Of a stretch of DNA of 64,000 nucleotides, positions 11,377-23,796 are shown piece after piece. The stretch's first letter is position 1; every line of letters begins with the position of its first letter. The notes beneath the pieces were generated by a model that had not been told where the DNA came from, did no database searches, and saw only the letters and a list, made by a program, of their open reading frames with translations. The position numbers and the translations under genes were made by a program. Origin of the DNA: an uncultured Gemmatimonadota bacterium (GTDB lineage Bacteria; JAAXHH01); assembly GCA_951812955.1 (NCBI GenBank), contig OX638340.1, positions 2,752,001 through 2,816,000 of the forward strand. The letters are read 5' to 3'.

Positions 11377-11612
11377 GATCGCTCAGGTATAGTGGCCGTC
11401 CGCGATACGATAGACCGCGATTCGGGGGTTGGGCTCGCCGTCCTCAACGGGCGCCATATCGACCCGTACATTTCGTCGTCGAGATCAGGCGGCGTGTCGC
11501 GTACCCACTCCAGGTTGGAATCCCGCGCGGTGGCGGGGTCGGAAGATACAACCAGAAGGGCGAAGATCATCACGGGGATAACGAGTTTCAACACGTTGTC
11601 TCCTCTCGTCAC
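11373..11612 (-). CDS. Small hypothetical protein (signal/TM-anchored) inside the RND operon
   Basis: 79-aa ORF that overlaps the adaptor stop and the permease start with ATGA overlaps at both ends. GAGGAG sits upstream of an in-frame GTG. Hydrophobic N-terminus LKLVIPVMIFALLVVSS; the rest is low complexity. Unconfirmed. Confidence 0.25.
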   Translation of the reverse strand: MTRGDNVLKLVIPVMIFALLVVSSDPATARDSNLEWVRDTPPDLDDEMYGSIWRPLRTASPTPESRSIVSRTATIPERS

Positions 11613-12820
11613 TCCATCATGCTCACGCTCACCGGGACGTCATGGGCCAGCGTGACGTTTCCGGTAACGGCCACTGTATCGCCTTCGGCGAGTCCGGAGG
11701 TGATTTCTCGCCAGTCGTCTGCCTCCCGGCCCAAGGCGACGTAGGTCCACTGGGCCCGTCCATCCCGTATTCGAAAGACCAGGGGGCGCTCGTCGCGGAC
11801 GACGATGGCGCCGGCGGGCACGGCCAACCGGTTCTCGTAGAGCGTACCCTCGATTCGGATCTCGGCGTACATGCCCGGTTTCAGCCGGCCGTCGGCGTTG
11901 GGCAGGTCGGCCTCAACGTAGCCCGTGCCCCTTTCCTCGTCCACAGCGGGGTAGATACGGGCGATGCGGCCTTCGAAGGATTCTTCCGGCCAGGCGACAA
12001 CCCGAATCCGTATGCCGCGGCCGATGTCGACTGCGCCTAAGTCGCTTTCCAACACGGCGGCCTTGACGCGGATACGGGACACATCCATGATCGTGAGGCA
12101 GGTTTCCCCGGCGGCGACCTGTTGACCTTCTTCGACGAGTCGTTCTGCGATGATGCCGGAATAGGGGGCGTTGATGGCGGTTTGTTCCAGGTCCAACACG
12201 GCGCGAGCATGAGCGATCTCCGCTCCGGTAAGGCCGGTATTCTGCGCGATGAGATCATACCTGTGATCCCCGGAGAGTAACTGCACGGCTTCGTAGTCTC
12301 TGCGGGCGGTCTGAAGCGCCGCCTGATCGATTTCCTCCCGCTCGATGGCAGCTTGCGCCTTGCGCCAGGCGTTTCTCTTGGTGTGTGTCCAGGTCGTATC
12401 GGGCGCCGTGACTTCGGTAGTGTCGGTGATGAATAGCGCGTACCTGTACCGGGCGTCCATGAGCGCCGAACGGGCTTCGTCCACCTGGATGCGGAACCGT
12501 TCTTCTTCCAGTCGTGCCAGGAGTTGGCCCTCATTGACAGTTTCGCCCTCGCGTACCAGGACGCTTTGGATTCTGCCGCCTACCCCCGCGCTCAGATCGG
12601 TCCGTCGTCCGGCCAGGAGACGACCGGAGGCCACGATCGTCCTCGTCAGCGTCCTTTGGGTTGCTACCGCGGCTTCCACGGGGAAGGGCTGCGGCTCGGT
12701 TTCCACCGGGACGGCACCCATAGGCTCGTTCGAAGTACCGGTCGGTTCGGGTCGCAGGAATATGACCGCCGCGACAATGGCGAGGATGACGATAATGAGG
12801 ATGGGAATGATCGTTTTCAT
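11609..12820 (-). CDS. Efflux RND transporter periplasmic adaptor subunit (membrane fusion protein, HlyD family)
   Basis: N-terminal TM anchor (MKTIIPILIIVILAIVAAVIFL); biotinyl-lipoyl-like and beta-barrel regions; C-terminus RIRDGRAQWTYVALG...GDTVAVTGNVTLAH typical of MFPs. Confidence 0.88.
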   Translation of the reverse strand: MKTIIPILIIVILAIVAAVIFLRPEPTGTSNEPMGAVPVETEPQPFPVEAAVATQRTLTRTIVASGRLLAGRRTDLSAGVGGRIQSVLVREGETVNEGQLLARLEEERFRIQVDEARSALMDARYRYALFITDTTEVTAPDTTWTHTKRNAWRKAQAAIEREEIDQAALQTARRDYEAVQLLSGDHRYDLIAQNTGLTGAEIAHARAVLDLEQTAINAPYSGIIAERLVEEGQQVAAGETCLTIMDVSRIRVKAAVLESDLGAVDIGRGIRIRVVAWPEESFEGRIARIYPAVDEERGTGYVEADLPNADGRLKPGMYAEIRIEGTLYENRLAVPAGAIVVRDERPLVFRIRDGRAQWTYVALGREADDWREITSGLAEGDTVAVTGNVTLAHDVPVSVSMME

Positions 12821-12823
12821 GGA

Positions 12824-13273
12824 TTATCCTGAATGATTGGCATTCCCCATGAATATCATACGATGCTCGAGAATCAACTTCCGACGTATGGGTTTGCCGG
12901 GTGAATAGCTCAGATACCCCCCGAAGCCTCTTTCTCTTGCGTACACGTGCGCGACGGGTTGGAATTGTGCTCGATACACACTGTAATAGAACACCATTTG
13001 AATGGGACGGATCAGTCTGACCAACAAACTGGCCTTGATTGTGCGTCGAGGGAAATGTACGTCGCCGTCGTCATTGGTTGTCCTATCCTGGCTGCTATAG
13101 GTTTTTTCAAGGGCGAAGTGCCGCCAATACTGGTGTACGTCAACACCTTTCAGCGGGTAACCGTCCCTGTCGAACACAGTAACGCTCCAGGCAGGTACTA
13201 CGGTGGACTCTACAGGATAGCCTATTACAACTGCTGTGACAAGAATGATCACTGTCACAAAGTATTTGCGCAT
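12824..13273 (-). CDS. Hypothetical secreted protein
   Basis: 149 aa with a signal peptide (MRKYFVTVIILVTAVVIGYP). Sits in a locally AT-richer patch. Its stop lies 4 bp from the adaptor start and it overlaps the MauE gene end. No recognisable family. Confidence 0.4.
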   Translation of the reverse strand: MRKYFVTVIILVTAVVIGYPVESTVVPAWSVTVFDRDGYPLKGVDVHQYWRHFALEKTYSSQDRTTNDDGDVHFPRRTIKASLLVRLIRPIQMVFYYSVYRAQFQPVAHVYARERGFGGYLSYSPGKPIRRKLILEHRMIFMGNANHSG

Positions 13274-13731
13274 TTAAACGCCTCCCTTATTGAAAATGGA
13301 ACGTGACGCGCGTAGACAAGACTTGAAGCGGCCGCCAATATGAACGTATTCCGAACCAGCACTTCGGCAATGGAGACGTTTCTTAAGTCATCGCCTAATC
13401 CGAAACAACCGCACGGCAGGTCTGCCCCGTAATACAGCCCCCAGGCCAGCGCGCCCATAAAGGACAACATCAGCAGCACAACGATCATCGCGCTATATCG
13501 GATCCATACCCCAATCACGAGACATAAACCGGTTGAGATTTCGATCCAGGGCAACGCAAGGGCGAAAGGGACTGCCAGCGGCTCGGGTACAATGTCATAC
13601 GACCGCACGATCTGCGCGAAGAGTTCGAGCTCCGGCATCTTGGCCAACCCTGCCCAGATAAAGATACCCCCTACCACTAAACGCAGCGCCAGGAGACCGA
13701 AGGGAACTATACGATCGTGTCCGCTTGCCAT
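13255..13731 (-). CDS. MauE/DoxX family membrane protein
   Basis: Four predicted TM helices and the CGCFG motif (DLPCGCFGLGDD) characteristic of methylamine-utilisation MauE-like / DoxX proteins. Confidence 0.7.
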   Translation of the reverse strand: MASGHDRIVPFGLLALRLVVGGIFIWAGLAKMPELELFAQIVRSYDIVPEPLAVPFALALPWIEISTGLCLVIGVWIRYSAMIVVLLMLSFMGALAWGLYYGADLPCGCFGLGDDLRNVSIAEVLVRNTFILAAASSLVYARHVPFSIREAFKCANTL

Positions 13732-13755
13732 GATTCATTTACCCCCGATGCATTT

Positions 13756-14844
13756 CTACAATGTGTCGAGAGGTTGCCTGAGCGTGTATGTCACTACGGC
13801 GGGATTGGATGACTCGTCGGCGGGTTCCACCAACATGTACAGACGATCTTCCCGTGTGAAGAGCGCGTCCGGACCTCCCATGAAATCCGGCATCTGGAGA
13901 CTGCTCGCGATCTGGTTCAGATCGGCATCGTACAGATCCATGAAGACGCGGGACCCTTGCGGGTCGGCGAATACTGCGCCCAGCCACCGATCGCCGATTC
14001 TAAGGAGTTGATAGAACTGGCTCCATGAACGCATATACTCCTGCCGTTTCCGCATGTCGTCCAGGACCATCGCGTCGGGCGGGTCCCGCGGAGGCACGTA
14101 GAAGGGCGATCGACCCTGCGCGGTTTTCACGAGTTCGCCATCGGGCGTGTATTTCCTCACGGTATATTCGTACGGGGTCGCGACGTAGAGAAACCGCCCG
14201 ACCGATACAATCCCTCCACCCCGTGAAGCCGCGGCGACATTGTAGTTCTCGGACTGAGGGGCGAATTCATTGAGCGTATCGCCCTGATCGTTCAATTCGT
14301 GCACCACGTGAATTGCGCCGCTGGTATTCACGTATCCGAAAACCCGACCCTCGGCAGTTACGTGTATATCTTCCAATCGCGGCGAAGGCGAGAAGCTGTT
14401 CCTGAAAACATAGTCGTTCCCGTAGATTGAAATGCGTGACAGCGTCATGTCGTAAAGTAAAAAAACTCCATCTCGCGTAGCCGCCAATGCAAGGGGATAG
14501 CGATACTCGCCGGGACCATCGCCCGGAGCGCCGAGGTGTTTTTTGCCTCGTCCCTTCCCATCGAATACGTCGACGCGAGTGGTAACGAAGTCCAGCACGA
14601 TGCAATCACCGTTGGACGCCACGGCGCCGATCTTGGGCAAAGGACCGAGCAGGAACTCATCGCTCGAATCGAGATTGATCCTCGATTCCACCCGGTAGAC
14701 ATCGTCGAATGTCAACGGTCGCTCCTGGCTCGCGCATGCCAACGGTCCGCACAGTCCGCATAGTATGAACAGCGCAATGGCAGAACGCGAAGCGGGACAC
14801 CATCTTGTAACGGGTGTAAAGGAACTGAGGTTTTTCGTGCTCAC
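13756..14844 (-). CDS. 6-bladed beta-propeller lipoprotein, TolB-like/NHL-like (paralog A)
   Basis: Signal peptide plus lipobox-like LAC. Repeated beta-strand blades (GDCIVLDFVTTRVDVFDGKG, LYVATPYEYTVRKYTPDGELV). Clear paralog of 15566..16717. Confidence 0.7.
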   Translation of the reverse strand: MSTKNLSSFTPVTRWCPASRSAIALFILCGLCGPLACASQERPLTFDDVYRVESRINLDSSDEFLLGPLPKIGAVASNGDCIVLDFVTTRVDVFDGKGRGKKHLGAPGDGPGEYRYPLALAATRDGVFLLYDMTLSRISIYGNDYVFRNSFSPSPRLEDIHVTAEGRVFGYVNTSGAIHVVHELNDQGDTLNEFAPQSENYNVAAASRGGGIVSVGRFLYVATPYEYTVRKYTPDGELVKTAQGRSPFYVPPRDPPDAMVLDDMRKRQEYMRSWSQFYQLLRIGDRWLGAVFADPQGSRVFMDLYDADLNQIASSLQMPDFMGGPDALFTREDRLYMLVEPADESSNPAVVTYTLRQPLDTL

Positions 14845-14889
14845 GGTGCGTATCCTTTCTATGTCGCGTTGTGCTTCGCCGTCGTGGAA

Positions 14890-15531
14890 TCAACCTTGTG
14901 CCGCGATGGTATTGATGTAGACGCCAAGCTTCTCATAGAAAGTGACGGTTCCCTGTTCGTCCTGATAATCCGAGTAATTCGCCAGTAGAACTCGATTGTC
15001 ACGTCCCAGAAACACGATCAAGGGGTATCTGTTGTAATCGAACCTCTTTAACAGATGTGATTCGGCGTCCATTACGGCAACGTCTTGAATCCGGTATTGT
15101 TTCAGATGAGAGAGAAAATGGGTCTCTTGAAAATCGGAAAAAACCATAATGGCGTCTATGTTTCTTTCCCTCAAGCGACTACGATACTCGTTGAACAACC
15201 GAAGCTCCATGTCCAGACAGCGGTTGCAGTTCGTTCCCGCAAAATGGTAGATCAGCTTATAACCGCCCGTATCCGAAAACAGGTCTCTGAACCTGGTGTT
15301 GGCGCGCTGCAATCGAGCTAGATCCGGTCCCAGACCAGCGCCTTCAAGCGCATGTTCATGGATGGTCAATTGTTCGCCTATGCTCATGGTCACCTTGTTC
15401 TTCCACGTGCCGTTTTCGGCGGTTAACTCCGATACTCTTTGGAACAGCACGATATTCAATGTGAGCAAGGAAACAATTCCGGCTAAAAGCCATTTTCGAG
15501 GTATGTCGAGACTAACCGCATTCGATGACAT
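14890..15531 (-). CDS. Thioredoxin-fold protein with CxxC motif (TlpA/MauD-like redoxin)
   Basis: N-terminal TM/signal anchor (WLLAGIVSLLTLNIVLF). Redox motif GTNCNRCL (C-x-x-C) in a thioredoxin-like context. Confidence 0.6.
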   Translation of the reverse strand: MSSNAVSLDIPRKWLLAGIVSLLTLNIVLFQRVSELTAENGTWKNKVTMSIGEQLTIHEHALEGAGLGPDLARLQRANTRFRDLFSDTGGYKLIYHFAGTNCNRCLDMELRLFNEYRSRLRERNIDAIMVFSDFQETHFLSHLKQYRIQDVAVMDAESHLLKRFDYNRYPLIVFLGRDNRVLLANYSDYQDEQGTVTFYEKLGVYINTIAAQG

Positions 15532-15565
15532 GCGGACACCTCCTACGGGCTTTACTGTAATACGC

Positions 15566-16717
15566 TTAACCCGATGATTTGAGTTCGTAGACGACTACAG
15601 TTGGATTGGGCAGATTCTTAACGTCCTGCGACAACACGACGGGTGCTTCTGAACGCAGCAGATAGAGTCGGTCACCCCTGGAGACGATCCCCTGCGAACC
15701 ACCGCCAATGTGCTCGGGCAATTGCAGGTCGCCGGTAACGTAATTGAGATCTGTGTCGTAGAGATCCAAAAACACGCGACGCTCATTTGGTTCGGCCAGG
15801 ACCACTCCTATCATCTCGTCTCCTATCTTCAACAGTTGTCTTATGTGGCTCCACGTGGCGTGGTACGCTTGTCGTTTGCGGAGATCGCTCGAAATTTCGT
15901 GCTCATCAAAGTCTGTCGAAGGCGGCACATAGTGCGACGATCTGCCCCGTACCGTTCGAATCAGTTTTCCACCAAGATCGTACTTCCGAAGTTCGTACTC
16001 ATAGGGGGTGATTACATAAAGGTGTGAACCAAGCAGCAAGATACCTCCCCCTCTGGATTCTCCCACGGTACTGAACTCCTCGTATTGATCGGCGAAACTG
16101 TTCTTGATCTCTCCTGACCTAGTGCACTCGTAGACTACCCTATCGGCCCCCTTCCTGCTAGCGACACCACTCGTATAGCAAAAGAAGCGATCGTCGGCTG
16201 TCACGATAATCTGACCCAGGAAAAGAGGAAGATCGACACTGCTGTTGAACGTAAAATCTTCGCTGTACTCCTGGATTCGCAGAAGATCTCCATCGTATAC
16301 GTAGTACCTGTGTGTTTGATCGCTATAGTAAAGGTTATCGGGGTAGAGGTATTGGTCCGCATTCGTCCCAAGACTTCCAATCTTCGCCTTGCTTCCGCCC
16401 TTGGAGTCGAATACAAGTATCTGTCGAACCCCGAAGTTATCCAACACAATGAAATCGCCCTGTTCGTTTATCGCGCTGAACCAGGGCAAAGCGCTCAGCG
16501 TGAAGCCCGAATCATTGGCAAGCGGGATCTGACGTATTTCTGTATACACTTCCAAGAAAGACTGTTTATCTCCATAGGAATCGGCGAGATGAGCAATGGA
16601 TGTATTGCGGGCTTCTTCCATCGAACCATGAGTACTCTGACACGCCATTGCTCCCATGAAAAACACCATTAGCGAAAAGGACAGCAACCGTAGCGTTTCA
16701 TTCGTTCGCTCTGACAT
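15566..16717 (-). CDS. 6-bladed beta-propeller lipoprotein, TolB-like/NHL-like (paralog B)
   Basis: Signal peptide plus AMAC lipobox-like. Blades GDFIVLDNFGVRQILVFDSKG and LYVITPYEYELRKYDLGGKLI are colinear with paralog A. AGGAGG lies 9 nt upstream of the ATG. Confidence 0.7.
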   Translation of the reverse strand: MSERTNETLRLLSFSLMVFFMGAMACQSTHGSMEEARNTSIAHLADSYGDKQSFLEVYTEIRQIPLANDSGFTLSALPWFSAINEQGDFIVLDNFGVRQILVFDSKGGSKAKIGSLGTNADQYLYPDNLYYSDQTHRYYVYDGDLLRIQEYSEDFTFNSSVDLPLFLGQIIVTADDRFFCYTSGVASRKGADRVVYECTRSGEIKNSFADQYEEFSTVGESRGGGILLLGSHLYVITPYEYELRKYDLGGKLIRTVRGRSSHYVPPSTDFDEHEISSDLRKRQAYHATWSHIRQLLKIGDEMIGVVLAEPNERRVFLDLYDTDLNYVTGDLQLPEHIGGGSQGIVSRGDRLYLLRSEAPVVLSQDVKNLPNPTVVVYELKSSG

Positions 16718-16750: not shown

Positions 16751-17087
16751 CAGTACAACCGGAAAGTGCTCGCTTCTTAAGTTGACGCTTATCGTGAATC
16801 GAACCACCACAATCCTATCGGTCAGGCTTGACTACGCTCAAGGCCAGGTATGAGCGCTAAATGGAGAACAATGATGAGATGTCGAGGGCTGGCAGTGGTA
16901 CACGTTATTTGCTACATGTACCCAATTGTATACTTGATTGGCTCCTGCCGGCTCCGTGGACAACGCCAGCATGCTCATTGCGCCGGCCATCGTCAATGCA
17001 CCGACGAACATTACACGAGTGAAGATGCTTCTGATTGAAGTTTTGATGACCGTGCTCCTTTCATTGTGCCTTTCCGGTTGTACTGTG
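16751..17087. repeat. Perfect 16-bp inverted repeat (cagtacaaccggaaag / ctttccggttgtactg) flanking a 305-bp AT-richer segment
   Basis: Read directly from the sequence. Left arm 16751-16766, right arm 17072-17087. The IR extends to 17 bp with one more matching base. Confidence 0.8.
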
Positions 17088-17170
17088 CAATGAATAAAAT
17101 GACACCTGACCGATAGTCATCAACAGATACATATTGGAAGTGGAAACGGCTGGATATTTAGGGTAAAACC

Positions 17171-17692
17171 CTACACCTCCATAATCTCCACCAGTTCGTC
17201 TTCAGGATACGGGAAATGCCCCTGGGTACCCCGGTTGACCCGGGCCATGCGCTCCCCGAACACCATGTCTTCTCTGATCAATTCCGAAGTCCTGTGAATG
17301 CACTCCAACGTTGGGATTCCTCCTGTCGCGATCGCTGCTTCGGCTTCCTCCAGAAGAGCCGTCATGTCGTAAAACATCTTGATATTCGGCGACAGCATCT
17401 TGCGAGCCTGTTCCGGCAGTGAGGCGCGTAACTCCAGACAGAGATCGAGGGCTTTCAGAAGATGTTCCCTCGCGATTCGAAAGCACTTCCGTGCTTTACT
17501 CAGTGAAGCGCGATACGGCAGGATATTTCCCGCCAGGCAGGCGCCCAGATCTTCTATTTCCTCCAGGGCGCCAAGTCCCATGAAATAGTGGCCCCATCCC
17601 GTAAGTGTGAGCGGATAGATCCGGTGTTCGAAGGCTTCTTTGAGCTCCACATTGTCTGGCATCGGCGGAAGTGGGCAGGTCCAATCAGACAT
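17171..17692 (-). CDS. Hypothetical protein (173 aa)
   Basis: Clean ORF with no family recognised. First gene downstream of the palindromic operator-like site at 17793-17809. Confidence 0.5.
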   Translation of the reverse strand: MSDWTCPLPPMPDNVELKEAFEHRIYPLTLTGWGHYFMGLGALEEIEDLGACLAGNILPYRASLSKARKCFRIAREHLLKALDLCLELRASLPEQARKMLSPNIKMFYDMTALLEEAEAAIATGGIPTLECIHRTSELIREDMVFGERMARVNRGTQGHFPYPEDELVEIMEV

Positions 17693-17792: not shown

Positions 17793-17809
17793 ATAGGGTG
17801 TATCCCTAT
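17793..17809. promoter_or_regulatory. Palindromic operator-like site ATAGGGTGTATCCCTAT, copy 1
   Basis: Perfect 6-bp arms with a 5-bp spacer. About 100 bp upstream of the start codon of 17171..17692 (minus strand). A near-identical copy lies at 18612-18628. Confidence 0.45.
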
Positions 17810-17890: not shown

Positions 17891-18526
17891 TCATTCTTCC
17901 ATTTTGATCAGACCAAGTTTGATCGCCGCTCGGATCAGATCGGGAAGGCTGTGCGTGTCTAGTTTCGCCATCAGATTTATGCGATGATTCTGCACGGTTT
18001 TTATACTGATTCGCATGGTTTCGGCTATCTGGCGATTGGATCGCCCCGATACGATCAGTCGAAGGATTTCGCGCTCACGGGGAGTAAGCCGGGGCGGTGT
18101 GCCATGGGGGTACTCCTCATACAGGTAATCGGCATGATCCATGGCCCGGGATTGGTACGTAACGCCCCTGCAAACGGTGCGTATCGCTTTGACCAACTCT
18201 TCGCCCGCTGATTTCTTGAGCACGTAGCCCCTGGCGCCGTTGTCCAGCGCTTTCCGGATCAGTGCGGGATCGGAATGCATCGACAGCATGACCACCCGGA
18301 CCTCGGAAAACGACGCGCGAATCCGCCTCGTCGCTTCGATACCGTTGATACCGGGCATCTCGACGTCCATCACTATGACGTCCGTTCGGACTCGATGCAC
18401 GGCATCGATCGCCTCCCGGCCATCCACGGCCTCGGCGACTATTCGAATATCGGACTCTTTTTCGAGCAGGTCCCGCAGCCCCTGCCGAATCAGATGATGA
18501 TCGTCTGCAATCACTACGCGTATCAT
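17891..18526 (-). CDS. LuxR/NarL-family response regulator (REC + HTH)
   Basis: MIRVVIADDHHLIRQGLRDLL...DVIVMDVEMPGINGIEA... C-terminal LuxR HTH (LTPREREILRLIVSGRSNRQIAETMRISIKTVQNHR). Confidence 0.9.
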   Translation of the reverse strand: MIRVVIADDHHLIRQGLRDLLEKESDIRIVAEAVDGREAIDAVHRVRTDVIVMDVEMPGINGIEATRRIRASFSEVRVVMLSMHSDPALIRKALDNGARGYVLKKSAGEELVKAIRTVCRGVTYQSRAMDHADYLYEEYPHGTPPRLTPREREILRLIVSGRSNRQIAETMRISIKTVQNHRINLMAKLDTHSLPDLIRAAIKLGLIKMEE

Positions 18527-18611: not shown

Positions 18612-18628
18612 ATAGGGTGTTTCCCTAT
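18612..18628. promoter_or_regulatory. Palindromic operator-like site ATAGGGTGTTTCCCTAT, copy 2
   Basis: Located in the 196-bp gap between the two response-regulator genes, about 85-100 bp upstream of the 17891..18526 start codon. Confidence 0.45.
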
Positions 18629-18722: not shown

Positions 18723-19376
18723 TCATTCATCCAGGAAAGCGAGACGGTGCTTGAGGGCCAGGAGTATGAGATCCGGCAGATTGTGGACTTTCAACTTCTT
18801 CATCAGGATCGCGCGGTGTTTTTCCACGGTCTTGTCGCTGATGTTCAGGACCTCCGCCGCGGCCTGATTGGTATGTCCCTCGACGATGAGCTGAAGTATC
18901 TCCCGTTCGCGGGATGAAAGCTGCTCCAGAACGGCCTTTGACTCATTCGCCGATTCCGTCTGCAGGAATCCCGATAGCACGGTTTGAGCAATCGAAGGTG
19001 AAAGATAGATTTCGCCCTTGTTGGCGGACCGGATGGCGATCAGGAGTTCCTCCACGACGGATCTCTTGAGGAGATACCCGCTGGCCCCGCATCTGAGCGC
19101 CTGGCGCACCACGTCCTCATCCGAATGCATGGATAGTATGACGACGCGGGTATCGACGGACAGCGTCTGAATCCGCCGCGTGGTCTCGATACCGTTCAGC
19201 AAAGGCATGGCGATATCCAACATGGCGACGTCCGGTCTCTTCCGTTGTACCAGGTTCAGGGTCTCGTGACCATCGGCCGCTTCGCCGACAACTTCCATAT
19301 CCTCGGCCTTTTCGATTAGAGACACGATGCTTTGACGGACCAGTTGGTGATCGTCGGCAATAACGATCCTGATCAT
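18723..19376 (-). CDS. LuxR/NarL-family response regulator (REC + HTH), paralog
   Basis: MIRIVIADDHQLVRQSIVSLIE... LSSREREILQLIVEGHTNQAAAEVLNISDKTVEKHR. Its start overlaps the kinase stop (ATGA). Confidence 0.9.
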   Translation of the reverse strand: MIRIVIADDHQLVRQSIVSLIEKAEDMEVVGEAADGHETLNLVQRKRPDVAMLDIAMPLLNGIETTRRIQTLSVDTRVVILSMHSDEDVVRQALRCGASGYLLKRSVVEELLIAIRSANKGEIYLSPSIAQTVLSGFLQTESANESKAVLEQLSSREREILQLIVEGHTNQAAAEVLNISDKTVEKHRAILMKKLKVHNLPDLILLALKHRLAFLDE

Positions 19377-22159
19377 TTCTCCTCCAAAGGAATTGTAGCG
19401 ACCAGACGGGCTCCCGCGCCTGGTTTCGAGTAAACATTCATGCGGCCATTCAGCGATTCAAGGCGTTCCTGCATATCTATCAAACCGATTCCTGTTTCAT
19501 TCTGATCCGAAAGTGTATCTGCAAGATCAAAACCCTGGCCGTTATCCTGTATCGATAGTTGTACGACTTCGCCATTGCGTTTCAAGCTAACTTCCACATG
19601 AGAGGCTTGTCCGTGTTTGACGCAGTTCGTCAGCCCTTCCTGCAGTATACGATACAGGCAGATATCGATTGGATTGGAGATTTCCGTAGTATCCATGCCA
19701 ACGTATGAGACCGGCATTTGAGTTCGTTGTGTTAAACTCTTGCATAGTCCTTCCAATGCTGTATTCAGCCCGACTGTATCCAGTGTCGGGGGACGGAGAT
19801 TATGGGAGATCGCACGTAGTTTCTCCAGCGTCTCGTCGGTTAGCGCCACGGCGTCGCTCAGCCGTTCTGCCGTATGATCGGAGACCCCGGACAACTCGTT
19901 CCGGGTTATTTCAAGGCTCATCTTCAGCGCCGTGAGCGCTTGTCCCGTATCGTCATGGAGATCCCGCGCCAGCCGGCTTCTTTCCGATTCCTGAATGTCG
20001 ATGAGTCGTCTGGAGAGTCTCTTCAATCCCAGGGCCTGATGCCGTAGCGATGTTGCCATATCGAGGTTCTTCAACGCCAATTCCAATTCGGCCGACAGGA
20101 CCAGCAACTGTTCTTTTTCATCGCTGTTGAACGGTTCTTCGCTGAGTTTTGCACCCAGTGCAATACATCCTTGACGGTCAGATCCTTGTCCGAGTACGAC
20201 CATGAGTTCGCACCCGGTGTCTCTCATACTTTCATTTGCGTACAGTTCGCGATACTCGACCAACGATTGCTCGGGGGGTATCGATCGCAGAAGGCCTTCG
20301 ACCTTGCCGGCTGCTTCAGTGAAGAACGTTTCATTTCTCTTGAGATCCTGCTCCGGCTTCTCACGCACTGCGTACCATCGGACCGAAAGCGATTCCTGAG
20401 GACTTTCTGCAAGGTATATCGCCAGATAGCAAACGTCCAATCCCTCCAGCAACTCTTGCCCGGTGGCGCTCAAAAGCGCATTACGATCCTGGTATTGCGT
20501 TAAGGATTGCTCGAGTCTGAAAAGGCGTTGTCGGTTTTCATATTCATCACGCAAAAGATATTGATTCAGTAAGCGGATGACGGGCGTCTTCACCCAGGTC
20601 CACCCTCCGACGAGTATCAAGGTGAATCCAGCGGCAGCGCTGGCGATCAGAAGATCGGAGGTTTCCATACCGGTCGGCCACACGGATATCAGTTCAAATA
20701 GTGCGATTAACGTCCAGAAGCTGAATATGAGATATATGCTCTTGGCATTGGCCAGGTAACGCAGACCACTTCCGAAGACGAACTTCAGGCCGAACACTCG
20801 GTGTGCCAGAATGGTATAGACAAAGGCGAGCGGCAGTCCACACTGCAGTACTACGTGGATGATCCGATCGAAGAGCCAGACTAATACCGGCAGGGCGGCC
20901 CCCCTTATTGGAATCAGGTCCCAACTGGCCAGAAGTGTACCAGGTTGCGTAATAGTCCACACGGGAGCCAAAATGAGGGCCGAGATGAATCCTGCCTTGA
21001 TGATATGCAGTCGCGTGCGTTGCTGATGCCGCGCGACGGAACGTTGGGCTATCATAAGACATCCCGCGGCGATGACAACGAGGGTGGGCAGCGCGGGAAC
21101 GGGCACTGGTTCAACGATTTCCGTGATGATACCAACTCCTGCGTGGTCCCACCCATAGGTCAGACTCAGCAAATAGATCAGACGGCACGATAGCCAGACA
21201 ATCAGGGGCGTCAGGATGAACCACCGGTTTTTGAGCAGCCATGATCCGAAAGCCGTCGCACTGGGGAAGACGGCAAGAATCCGAAACATGAGAACGATTT
21301 CCAGTAAGGATGCCGCGACGATGGCGAATATGCTGAGGAACAGTACCCAGTCCGGCCATCCGGCTATCATGGGATGGAAAGCGGGCGAGGAGGAAAGCGC
21401 CATAGCGAGGAAGAGCAACGCGCATCGAAAGGCAAGGGGACTGTGCGGACTCCTGAACCCCATCCAGGTTCCGAAGACCAGCAGGACCATCGGTAAAATC
21501 AGATACGGCCCCCGTTGGAACCACGTCATCGCGCCTACGCCCAGTACGAGTTCCTCCTGATTGACCTCGACTGCGTATCGTACCTGTTCCGTGGCCTCAA
21601 GCGTGAGTATACCAGCGTGCATGCTGCCGTCGCGAAGCCAGGCAAGATTGAAACGTTCACCGGGCTTGCTCCGCAAACGCGCCTGGAAATAGGCTTCGGG
21701 ACGTGTCCCGAGATCCGTGCCATCAATAGAGATCACCAGGTCACCCGGTCGCAATCCGGCTTTGTCCGCAGGGCTGTCCGCGTCTACTTGCGTGACGGTA
21801 ATACCGCCGTCCTCGCGTATGCGAACGAGGTGGAACCACGTGCCCTCCTGCAGATTGCTCACCGCACTTTTCGTGAGTCCCTTCGTCTGTATCATTTCAT
21901 TTCCGAAGAACTGGATACCCGGTGACCAGTGCTCGATTTGCGTGAACCGTACCAGCGTCCACGTGACCAGTCCTAAATGCATACACGTGAACATGACCAG
22001 TGCGCTGAGTGCGACGTATCGGCGGATGAGTGTCTTCAACCGAGAGCTACTCAATTGCGAGGGAATTGTATTTGAAGAGTCATTCATGTCAACATACAGA
22101 TTGCTTTTCGAGAAGCATCCTGAAGCAATTTCGGAAAACAGGTGGACTTGACTCAACAA
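19373..22159 (-). CDS. Membrane sensor histidine kinase with N-terminal PDZ domain, multi-TM region, GAF-like and HisKA_3/HATPase_c domains
   Basis: PDZ-like segment VTQVDADSPADKAGLRPGDLVISIDGTDL after TM1. About 8-10 hydrophobic helices. H-box ERSRLARDLHDDTGQALTAL (NarL-type HisKA_3). Then N/G boxes (DNGQGFD, GIGLIDMQERL). Confidence 0.85.
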   Translation of the reverse strand: MLSQVHLFSEIASGCFSKSNLYVDMNDSSNTIPSQLSSSRLKTLIRRYVALSALVMFTCMHLGLVTWTLVRFTQIEHWSPGIQFFGNEMIQTKGLTKSAVSNLQEGTWFHLVRIREDGGITVTQVDADSPADKAGLRPGDLVISIDGTDLGTRPEAYFQARLRSKPGERFNLAWLRDGSMHAGILTLEATEQVRYAVEVNQEELVLGVGAMTWFQRGPYLILPMVLLVFGTWMGFRSPHSPLAFRCALLFLAMALSSSPAFHPMIAGWPDWVLFLSIFAIVAASLLEIVLMFRILAVFPSATAFGSWLLKNRWFILTPLIVWLSCRLIYLLSLTYGWDHAGVGIITEIVEPVPVPALPTLVVIAAGCLMIAQRSVARHQQRTRLHIIKAGFISALILAPVWTITQPGTLLASWDLIPIRGAALPVLVWLFDRIIHVVLQCGLPLAFVYTILAHRVFGLKFVFGSGLRYLANAKSIYLIFSFWTLIALFELISVWPTGMETSDLLIASAAAGFTLILVGGWTWVKTPVIRLLNQYLLRDEYENRQRLFRLEQSLTQYQDRNALLSATGQELLEGLDVCYLAIYLAESPQESLSVRWYAVREKPEQDLKRNETFFTEAAGKVEGLLRSIPPEQSLVEYRELYANESMRDTGCELMVVLGQGSDRQGCIALGAKLSEEPFNSDEKEQLLVLSAELELALKNLDMATSLRHQALGLKRLSRRLIDIQESERSRLARDLHDDTGQALTALKMSLEITRNELSGVSDHTAERLSDAVALTDETLEKLRAISHNLRPPTLDTVGLNTALEGLCKSLTQRTQMPVSYVGMDTTEISNPIDICLYRILQEGLTNCVKHGQASHVEVSLKRNGEVVQLSIQDNGQGFDLADTLSDQNETGIGLIDMQERLESLNGRMNVYSKPGAGARLVATIPLEEK

Positions 22160-22307
22160 GCAAGTTTACTCGATCCAGGCCCGATACACCACCGGCGGTT
22201 TTCCCCGATCTCTGTACGACGACATGACCGCTTACATACAGCGGCCGGAACAGTGGCGTCACGTTCATGGGGTCGGTACGAGGTCGGGGCATGTCAGGGA
22301 AGGGATA

Positions 22308-22703
22308 TTAGCCGTCCGGTTCGGCGACATAGGTGTAGAGGATCGTTCCATCCCGGTCAAGCTGGAAGACCTCGTACCGCTTGGAGGGCGAGTATAGAAT
22401 ACGGCCATCAGGTGTTTGCGACAGATGGTTAAAGTTGGTTCGCACAGGTATGGTTGGTTTGCCGCCTATCACGAACTTACCGATTCCGTAACGAAGATTA
22501 CCGCCCATTTCGTAAACGGCGAAAATCGGTTCGTCCCATACGGAATTCACGGCGATCTCTCCGTCGTTCCCGGCCAGGATTCCGCTGGGAGGCAACAGAT
22601 TCTCGATGCGAAAATCCGAGAGGTGCGCGCCGTTCATCGTAAAGACCGTAATACGATTGTTTCCCGAGTCAAGAACAATGACTTTCTCATTGGATATGGC
22701 CAC
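22308..22703 (-). pseudogene. Fragment of a 6-bladed beta-propeller protein (same family as 13756..14844)
   Basis: VIVLDSGNNRITVFTMNGAHL...YEVFQLDRDG aligns to internal blades of the intact paralogs. It lacks the N-terminal signal and the C-terminal third, and flanking frames are broken. Confidence 0.55.
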
Positions 22704-23032
22704 ACCTAGAGGTCGATTCAGCTCTCCGGGACCAGACCTCCCATACTATTCCGATGAGAAACCGCCCCTGATGATTCGACCACCCAGATCGTGTGATGCC
22801 GGTCGTCAGCCAGAAAGAAACGGCCATCCGCGTCCATGTTTTCATGATGTCTGTGACCGATAGTATCTGGGCATTGGGCGGATAGTTAAGCTTGCCGTAA
22901 CCTGGGGCAATCGGCCTCGTAAGTCGCGATGACGGTACCGTCCCACTTCATTCTGAATACGGGGTATTCCTTGACCGCAGAATATAGAATATGACCCTCA
23001 GGCGTCTGGTTGAAATGCTGATCGCCCTGGTC

Positions 23033-23566
23033 CTATCCAACAGTCTGGTCTGGCACTCTTTCACCTCGGCTTCCTACAACGCTACCACACAAATCGTAGA
23101 CCGTAAAAAGTGTTTGCCCCCAGAGAGAATTGACCGCGATCTGGCCGTTCTTGCTCGCCAGTATTCCGGATGTCATTTGAAATTCCAACCGGAAGTCGTC
23201 TAAATACATACCATCCATCTTGAATATCATTACCCGGCTATTGCCGGAATCGTTCACGATGACTTTGTTTTCAAATACAGCTGCTCCTCCTGGACGCAGC
23301 AGTTCACCGGGGCCGGCCCCGTCCCGGCCAATGCGGCTGATCAGTTTGCCCTCTGAGTCACAAATCCAGACTGTATTCTGCTGCCCGTCCGTCAGGTAAA
23401 ACCGGCCGTCGTTGTCCCGTATCAGGTCTCCGATTTTTCCAGCAATCTCATCTTCAAGATCCAGCGGAATTGCACTGACTTTCTCGACTGCGAATGGCTG
23501 GGCATTTGCGGAACCCAAAAGTAACCACCATGATACAGGTTGATACAACCATGATAAGAACGGCAA
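23033..23566 (-). pseudogene. N-terminal fragment of a 6-bladed beta-propeller protein (signal peptide retained)
   Basis: Signal peptide, then VIVNDSGNSRVMIFKMDGMYLDDFRLEF...QIAVNSLWGQTLFTVYDL, highly similar to fragment 22308..22703 and to the intact paralogs. Truncated after about 177 aa. Confidence 0.55.
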
Positions 23567-23619
23567 AGTCGTTTACGCCTTTCTTCAAGAATTCACGTGT
23601 AAGGCGCCTCATTCCCACA

Positions 23620-23796
23620 ACCGTACCCGGACCGGCACGTGTGGGCCAGTGTAGTGTTGCCGGTGTCGGCCACCGTGTCGCCCTCGCTGATCCCTGAGGT
23701 CACTTCCCGCCAATTGTCGCCTTCCTTACCCAGGTTGACGTACGTCCACTGGGCCCTTCCACTACGAATTGAAGTAAGAATACCCGGGAATCCCAC
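23620..23796 (-). pseudogene. C-terminal fragment of an RND adaptor (MFP) gene
   Basis: IRSGRAQWTYVNLGKEGDNWREVTSGISEGDTVADTGNTTLAH versus the intact adaptor C-terminus IRDGRAQWTYVALGREADDWREITSGLAEGDTVAVTGNVTLAH. Nothing upstream of it is adaptor-like. Confidence 0.6.

Follow-up and report, generated by a model that had tools for sequence, protein, structure and literature searches.

What does a histidine kinase sense when a PDZ domain and a large block of membrane helices precede its catalytic core, and what does it control? The question is raised by a stretch of 64,000 nucleotides from an uncultured Gemmatimonadota bacterium (contig OX638340.1, positions 2,752,001 to 2,816,000; in the following the window), which encodes such a kinase on its minus strand, followed by two response regulators, RR1 and RR2. 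An earlier note on this DNA had regarded the architecture as unusual and the locus as possibly acquired. Taken as a whole, the locus is probably a two-component cassette with a ComP-type receptor kinase at its centre.

The kinase and its relation to ComP

The maximal minus-strand open reading frame (ORF) in the window, 19373..22159, has 928 aa. Kinase homologues are mostly 888 aa long and their conserved TTG start corresponds to position 22039. The maximal ORF contains a sigma-70-like sequence, TTGACA-16-TACAAT, at 22092-22065. Because of the conserved TTG and this promoter-like match, the gene is likely to start at 22039. Overall, scans for terminators and promoters gave no more matches than expected by chance. 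The kinase, its parts and the regulators are arranged as follows (TM, transmembrane helix; AF2, AlphaFold2).

19373..22039, minus strand: ComP-like sensor histidine kinase, 888 aa from the conserved TTG, assigned from the ORF, Pfam, homologues and alignment to a ComP profile
21950..22015, minus strand: TM1 (aa 49-70 in the 928-aa ORF), following a short cytoplasmic tail rich in K and R, assigned from hydropathy, positive-inside count and an AF2 helix
21512..21943, minus strand: predicted extracytoplasmic loop with the PDZ domain (Pfam core aa 121-176, 21632-21799), with an invariant Gly in SPGIQ and a family-specific insertion of ~27 aa
20597..21511, minus strand: block of nine helices, TM2-TM10, without a Pfam model; a variable, recombining module
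20060..20551, minus strand: cytoplasmic GAF-fold domain and start of the S-helix; the second variable module
19781..19984, minus strand: HisKA_3 (DHp) with the phospho-acceptor His in LARDLHDD
19382..19657, minus strand: HATPase_c (CA), for which the syntenic orthologue in locus L005 carries a divergent allele
18723..19376, minus strand: RR1, 217 aa, NarL/LuxR-type (REC and GerE), with an ATGA overlap with the kinase stop; translationally coupled
17891..18526, minus strand: RR2, 211 aa, NarL/LuxR-type (REC and GerE), with its own promoter region; some cassettes are without it

Pfam models matched the kinase above their curated cut-offs with PDZ_6 (48.9 bits), PDZ_2 (45.9), PDZ (32.4), HisKA_3 (55.5) and HATPase_c (53.8). 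By hydropathy, TM1 is followed by the PDZ loop of 144 residues and then by about nine helices up to aa 521; together with the AF2 model this gives ten helices (1+9). The short loops of TM2-TM10 contain nine K and R residues on the predicted inside and one on the predicted outside, and the N-terminal tail contributes a positive cluster, RLKTLIRRY. Because of this bias, the predicted topology is N-in, with the PDZ domain outside the cytoplasm and the kinase core inside. The PDZ domain that the earlier note had placed between TM1 and the membrane block is thus upheld by the profiles as well as by the predicted topology. The GAF domain named in the same note is supported at the level of the fold: Pfam GAF, GAF_2 and GAF_3 did not match the kinase itself at E≤0.1, but GAF_3 matched 47 of 54 homologues with a PP2C output in the region aligned to this stretch. 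The HisKA_3/HATPase_c core has the full set of catalytic motifs and is closest to LiaS-, VraS- and DesK-type HisKA_3 kinases. The sensors of the latter differ, as they are small (intramembrane-sensing or 5-TM) and have neither PDZ nor GAF domain.

The domain order is not novel, contrary to what had been supposed, but ComP's own. For Bacillus ComP, ten TM segments with a PDZ fold between TM1 and TM2 have been described, followed by an α/β 'Part 1', HisKA_3 and HATPase_c (PMC9620489), and a survey of microbial PDZ proteins from 2019 lists 'sensor histidine kinase ComP' among four non-protease PDZ families (PMC6411480). BLASTP aligned the kinase with ComP in the kinase core only (32% identity, E 1e-25) and found nothing outside it. 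Between profiles (hhalign), the window family matched a profile of 20 ComP sequences with 99.9% (E 2.4e-33) over 704 collinear columns from the PDZ domain to the C-terminus. It also matched a family of PP2C phosphatases with 100% (E 1.1e-75) over 608 columns from TM1 to GAF, when a pure kinase alignment free of PP2C sequences was used. ComP in turn matched the PP2C family with 98.9% (E 3.8e-17) over 508 columns covering TM1, PDZ, TM block and GAF. As the PP2C family shares the sensor only and matches both others, the alignments argue that the sensor half (TM1, PDZ, TM block and GAF) is one homologous module in all three families. By the same alignments, the kinase is to be placed as a distant ComP relative with the same domain layout, and its sensor as a portable module that is here attached to a NarL-type kinase.

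All three features by which a ComP-type kinase was recognised, namely the architecture, the homology of the sensor half and a NarL/LuxR regulator encoded directly downstream, were found. The window protein resembles Bacillus ComP in its N-in TM1, the extracellular PDZ domain, nine further TM helices, a cytoplasmic α/β (GAF-like) domain and the order of HisKA_3 and HATPase_c, and in a membrane domain that varies more than the cytoplasmic core. In contrast to ComP, it is accompanied by two regulators and not one, occurs in Gemmatimonadota-type metagenome-assembled genomes (MAGs) in several copies per genome, and has transporters, peptidases or a 173-aa protein as putative outputs, where ComP has competence and surfactin genes. 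Furthermore, neither comQ (PF00348) nor comX (PF05952) was found beside the kinase in the window, L001 or L002, and therefore the cassette is not a ComQXPA system. Propeller and HlyD-like fragments lie upstream of the kinase in the window, and a permease, EF-G and an ABC membrane protein in L001 and L002. Among the compared genomes, no conservation of the DNA upstream of the kinase was found. For contrast, L003 and L004 have the genuine comQ-comX-comP-comA order; these authentic loci were reached via ComA (100% identical to a named B. subtilis entry). A census of comQXPA loci contains none outside Firmicutes (PMC4008528).

The kinase-wired family comprises ~114 clusters at 90% identity, all named sources of which are Gemmatimonadota. 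Full-length relatives were found at 15 loci in ~11 MAGs (species-representative genomes) with up to three copies in some; no second cassette was seen in the 64-kb window. The source MAGs are assemblies of ~3.5-4 Mb and bins labelled Gemmatimonadetes, Latescibacterota and Caldilineaceae. The sensor module is far more widespread. A TM-block and GAF profile, built with two PP2C-family sequences included, matched 14,842 representative clusters at E≤1e-3. SpoIIE was found in 50 and PDZ in 36 of the 54 sampled matches, besides GAF_3 as given above, and named matches are 'SpoIIE family protein phosphatase' or RsbU from Acidobacteriota and Eisenbacteria. Among the module proteins P0121-P0268, SpoIIE/PP2C fusions likewise prevail, and Ser/Thr-kinase or HisKA outputs are rare. 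PP2C phosphatases are thus the numerically dominant context of the module. These RsbU-like proteins share the whole sensor half with the window protein, but their output is a phosphatase of the partner-switching type and not a histidine kinase. A literature search retrieved no paper on the PDZ-10TM-GAF module and no characterised PP2C-fused member. The ComP sensor would accordingly be one branch of a very large unnamed module, found mostly with a PP2C output in phyla of which few members are cultured (e.g. Acidobacteriota), and ComP could give experimental access to thousands of membrane sensors that are uncharacterised.

Recombination among cassettes

Sliding-window comparison of the DNA of different cassettes revealed sharp junctions near 21500, 20800, 20010, 19860 and 19450. 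One segment is bounded by two of them:

20010..21500, minus strand: recombinant segment with 55-73% DNA identity to L001, L006, L007 and L018, both flanks having 87-99%

In L010, the PDZ region is divergent in addition to this segment. The further breakpoints were located at ~20800 in comparison with L002a and at ~19860 and ~19450 in comparison with L005. Compared with P0008, P0017, P0025 and P0033, the window kinase is 85-92% identical in the PDZ domain, 87-91% in DHp and 91-95% in CA, and 57-74% in the TM block and 48-52% in GAF. With P0002 the pattern is reversed (sensor ~90%, CA 59%). RR1 is 94-96% identical between cassettes whose kinases share 70-76% overall and 64-72% over the sensor. 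The most conserved part of the sensor is the PDZ domain (dN, the nonsynonymous divergence, ~0.04-0.055), and the variation sits in the TM block and GAF. Concerning CA, a swap is seen even against the syntenic orthologue L005, where DNA identity is 63-78% between 19450 and 19860 and 89-99% on either side; the window CA is ~94% identical to the CA of paralogous cassettes in other genomes.

Synonymous divergence (dS) was 0.12-0.42 in PDZ, DHp, CA, RR1 and RR2. In some pairs it rose to 1.2-1.3 in the TM block and from 2.2 to saturation in GAF, while other pairs stayed at the level of the backbone. As dN/dS remained at ~0.15-0.25 in the variable modules, these are better explained as old alleles moved by recombination than as fast-evolving sequence; the gross dN/dS gave no sign of positive selection in them. 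The module types are incongruent across 33 family members. The comparisons thus argue that the family evolves by recombination, in which old alleles of the TM block, of GAF and sometimes of CA are exchanged onto a young backbone of PDZ, DHp, CA, RR1 and RR2. It would illustrate in clean form how a sensor kinase recombines at the level of domains, and bears on how specificity can diversify while the pairing of kinase and regulator stays fixed.

Regulators, putative operators and the input signal

The two regulators are paralogues, as the earlier note had stated, with intact receiver residues in both and 47% identity to each other. They do not stem from a recent tandem duplication. The spacer between RR1 and RR2 is 196 bp long in the window and 197-198 bp in other genomes with the same pair of 217 and 211 aa. 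Each regulator is 86-97% identical to its own orthologue in the closer cassettes (RR1 92-97%) and 59-73% in the diverged ones (RR1 likewise), but only ~47% to the other regulator. Since the pair and its spacer are kept across genomes and each regulator is nearer to its orthologue than to its neighbour, the arrangement is old. It is also tied to a palindrome that occurs three times in the window:

18613..18627, no strand: palindrome site 1, TAGGG-N5-CCCTA, ahead of RR2 in the conserved spacer between the regulators
17794..17808, no strand: palindrome site 2, ~85 bp past the RR2 stop
17171..17692, minus strand: conserved hypothetical protein of 173 aa, a recurrent output gene behind site 2
17159..17173, no strand: palindrome site 3, located at the stop of the 173-aa gene and followed by a small ORF and by propeller and thioredoxin genes

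The exact sequence TAGGG-N5-CCCTA was observed three times in the 64-kb window versus 0.02 expected, and twice per cassette in L001 and L002 versus 0.02-0.04 expected. Most other full-length loci have related palindromes with no more than one mismatch, and the spacing to a -10-like element is conserved. The spacer between the regulators, which contains a perfect palindrome, is 91% identical at DNA level in three genomes. A conserved -10-like TAGTAT implies a transcription start ~43 nt downstream of the centre of site 1, so that the site lies about where a class-II activator would be expected. From their position and conservation, the palindromes are putative operators of the cassette regulators. 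The ComA box is likewise an inverted repeat (6-N4-6). Two loci show the arrangement in a different form: a unit of site 1, RR2 and site 2 stands alone in L006 (2950-3756), 2.3 kb upstream of the kinase, and the second cassette of L002 (17923-18090) has two palindromes 153 bp apart with no RR2 between them. Given the lone unit and the site pair without a regulator, RR2 seems to have been gained or lost between palindromes. As a structured RNA, the spacer was rejected (z = -0.44), and an Rfam scan of 12-24 kb gave no match.

Behind site 2, ~60 nt are conserved across loci, followed by different genes. The 173-aa protein is found there in the window, L005, L011, L012 and L017, duplicated permeases of the FtsX/MacB type in L001, L009, L010, L015 and L018, ABC ATPases in L002a and L007, and probable S41 peptidases in L002b, L006 and L008 (one in L002 confirmed by Pfam). 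The 173-aa protein is 68-92% identical in the four other cassettes with many invariant Cys, His, Trp and Gly residues. No Pfam, NCBIfam or PADLOC family matched it, and an all-helical structure is predicted with low confidence (single-sequence model, pLDDT 59). A weak match to T7 gp14 in the PDB (E 0.003) was judged spurious.

A course of signalling can be proposed from these features. The PDZ domain and the TM block would jointly read a periplasmic or membrane-borne ligand, and the signal would run via GAF and the S-helix to the DHp domain. The kinase would then phosphorylate the coupled RR1 and probably RR2 too. One or both phosphorylated regulators would bind the TAGGG-N5-CCCTA palindromes, positioned roughly as for a class-II activator. 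Activation of RR2 would constitute a feed-forward step, and the gene behind site 2 would be switched on, i.e. the 173-aa protein in the window and elsewhere an FtsX/MacB-type permease, an ABC transporter or a probable S41 peptidase. Site 3 possibly switches on the small-ORF, propeller, thioredoxin and DoxX genes. Cassette copies within one genome are probably parallel sensors feeding one regulon, since RR1, DHp and the operators are near-identical between such copies. The Gemmatimonadota cassettes thus offer a testable regulatory unit of kinase, two regulators, putative palindromic operator and swappable output genes.

Some points weigh against a ComP-type cassette of this kind. The direct match of a sensor-only profile to ComP is borderline on its own (P 1.7e-4, 50% probability) and the score of the full-length ComP alignment is boosted by the kinase core, so that the strong case is the full-length alignment together with transitivity through the PP2C family. 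Confidence in the AF2 model of the kinase is only moderate (pLDDT 70.5), and the loops at 411-432 and 487-496 are weak. The palindromes could be recombination or termination elements instead of operators. Finally, the family genomes are all MAGs and some of the mosaicism could in principle be assembly chimerism. Several of the assemblies are single chromosomes, however, the repeated segments are 90-97% identical and not identical, and module types seen in one genome are met again in independent ones.

Since the outputs serve the envelope and transport, a signal directed at the envelope (a peptide, a lipid-like compound or an antimicrobial) is favoured as the most likely input, albeit tentatively; a self-made pheromone is unlikely. 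Among the more specific proposals is that of the earlier note, in which the periplasmic PDZ domain binds misfolded or cleaved envelope proteins at their exposed C-termini and directly activates the kinase, as in DegS- and RseP-type sensing of envelope stress. The PDZ domain is of the bacterial PDZ_6/PDZ_2 type found in DegS, RseP, HtrA and Prc and matched the models of all four, each below cut-off. Its predicted location, its conservation, the invariant Gly of the carboxylate-binding loop (SPGIQ, G41) and the probable S41 C-terminal processing peptidases and envelope transporters among the outputs of sister cassettes all agree with the reading of C-terminal peptides outside the cytoplasm. Profile searches detected no protease domain in the kinase protein, so the DegS/RseP-type combination of PDZ and protease was not found, and the output is phosphorylation instead of proteolysis. 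Moreover, the family-specific insertion adjoins the binding loop, and sensing by the PDZ domain only would leave the multiple ancient alleles of TM block and GAF unexplained. The closest characterised relative, ComP, senses a lipidated peptide pheromone, its PDZ role being only modelled (PMC9620489). Such envelope-stress sensing is therefore considered rather unlikely.

A comparable, minor chance is given to detoxification of antimicrobial peptides or bacteriocins in the style of Bce and Lia systems, where the kinase would sense a membrane-active compound and induce the adjacent transporter. The permeases or ABC transporters behind site 2 in at least seven cassettes and the proximity of the kinase core to LiaS, VraS and DesK would fit. 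However, the window copy is followed by the 173-aa protein only and by no transporter, and the sensors of Bce and Lia systems are minimal, unlike the sensor with ten TM helices, PDZ and GAF described here.

The small ORF between site 3 and the propeller gene (16838-17011, minus strand; MFVGALTMAGAMSMLALSTEPAGA / NQVYNWVHVANNVYHCQPSTSHHCSPFSAHTWP) encodes 57 aa with a signal-like N-terminus and a His/Trp-rich tail with two Cys. It is intact in the syntenic L005 with 91% amino acid identity and nine synonymous versus seven nonsynonymous nucleotide changes. The position of its ATG differs by genome; L005 begins 13 codons earlier and thereby gains a K/R-rich n-region. Cassettes other than those of the window and L005 do not contain this ORF.

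True quorum sensing similar to ComQXPA would require a self-produced, secreted and possibly modified peptide, for which the small ORF could be a candidate, with the TM-block alleles as pherotypes. The homology of the kinase to ComP speaks for it, as does the variable membrane domain next to a conserved cytoplasmic core, which mirrors the polymorphism of ComP (PMC4008528). Nevertheless, it is decidedly unlikely. A polyprenyl-transferase (comQ) or comX-like gene adjoins the kinase in none of the three loci named above, and the upstream DNA shows no conservation. In addition, the small ORF is limited to two loci with different start codons and does not co-vary with the TM-block type, and near-identical regulators in several cassettes would blur the privacy of pherotypes. 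A speculative extension of similarly low probability takes the family as a recombining multi-allelic receptor array. Ancient specificity modules of TM block and GAF would be shuffled among paralogues and genomes onto a fixed backbone of PDZ, kinase, regulators and operator and yield combinatorial ComP-like receptors for one regulon, which could amount to pherotype-like communication or discrimination outside Firmicutes without ComQ and ComX, the small ORF behind site 3 being the candidate signal.

The low-GC tract

The lower GC content that the earlier note had reported for 19.4-22.2 kb is real at the kinase but not confined to it. The kinase has a GC content of 0.535 (0.60 at third codon positions, GC3), compared with 0.596 on average in the window and 0.60-0.65 in the flanks, and the low-GC tract extends over ~12.8-23.8 kb. 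Across the tract, GC3 is 0.54-0.71, and flanking genes have a GC content of 0.63-0.64 with a GC3 of 0.74-0.86. The sister genome at L005 is syntenic from the sulfatase gene through the DoxX gene and has the same GC step, with 95.5% identity to the window in the flank and 89.9% in the tract.

The hint of acquisition drawn from the lower GC was not borne out as a recent event, and a recently acquired foreign island carrying the kinase is very unlikely. It would agree with the difference in GC3, with the repeat and gene debris described below, and with a cassette that is multi-copy in varied contexts and has an IS200-type Y1 transposase nearby in L001. But the tract and its GC step are shared with L005, cassette copies are equally low in GC in all genomes examined, all full-length relatives found belong to a narrow lineage, and neither a tRNA nor an integrase was found at the tract borders. 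The comparison with these genomes rather characterises the tract as accessory, faster-evolving DNA with a rearrangement scar, and leaves a recent import unsupported.

At the upstream edge, ~1.6 kb (22161-23795) are specific to the window, where L005 has 151 bp. In this part, ~47 aa of an HlyD-like C-terminus are left, with 70% identity to the intact gene at 11609-12820. The part also contains two propeller ORFs, both truncated (22308-22703 and 23033-23566), whose homology to each other extends over the same blades. An imperfect direct repeat of 129 nt (11643-11771 and 23642-23770) with 73% identity and a spacing of 11,999 bp brackets the tract. One copy lies within the HlyD-like adaptor gene at its 3' end; the other, which is the HlyD-like fragment just described, adjoins the sulfatase gene.

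No defence-system families were matched among the genes of the tract. Downstream of the cassette, the low-GC DNA continues with a run of genes on the minus strand (12824-16717), which is possibly co-regulated via site 3 and, except for a 149-aa hypothetical protein that lies beyond the end of the locus, syntenic in L005. Apart from the latter, it encodes two six-bladed DUF5128/NHL propellers (40% mutual identity), a thioredoxin-like protein that has a membrane anchor and a CNRC motif, and a DoxX-like protein. Among NCBIfam models, BT_3928 (1e-11) and the HvfX Cu-RiPP maturation family (2e-5) matched the DoxX-like protein below threshold.

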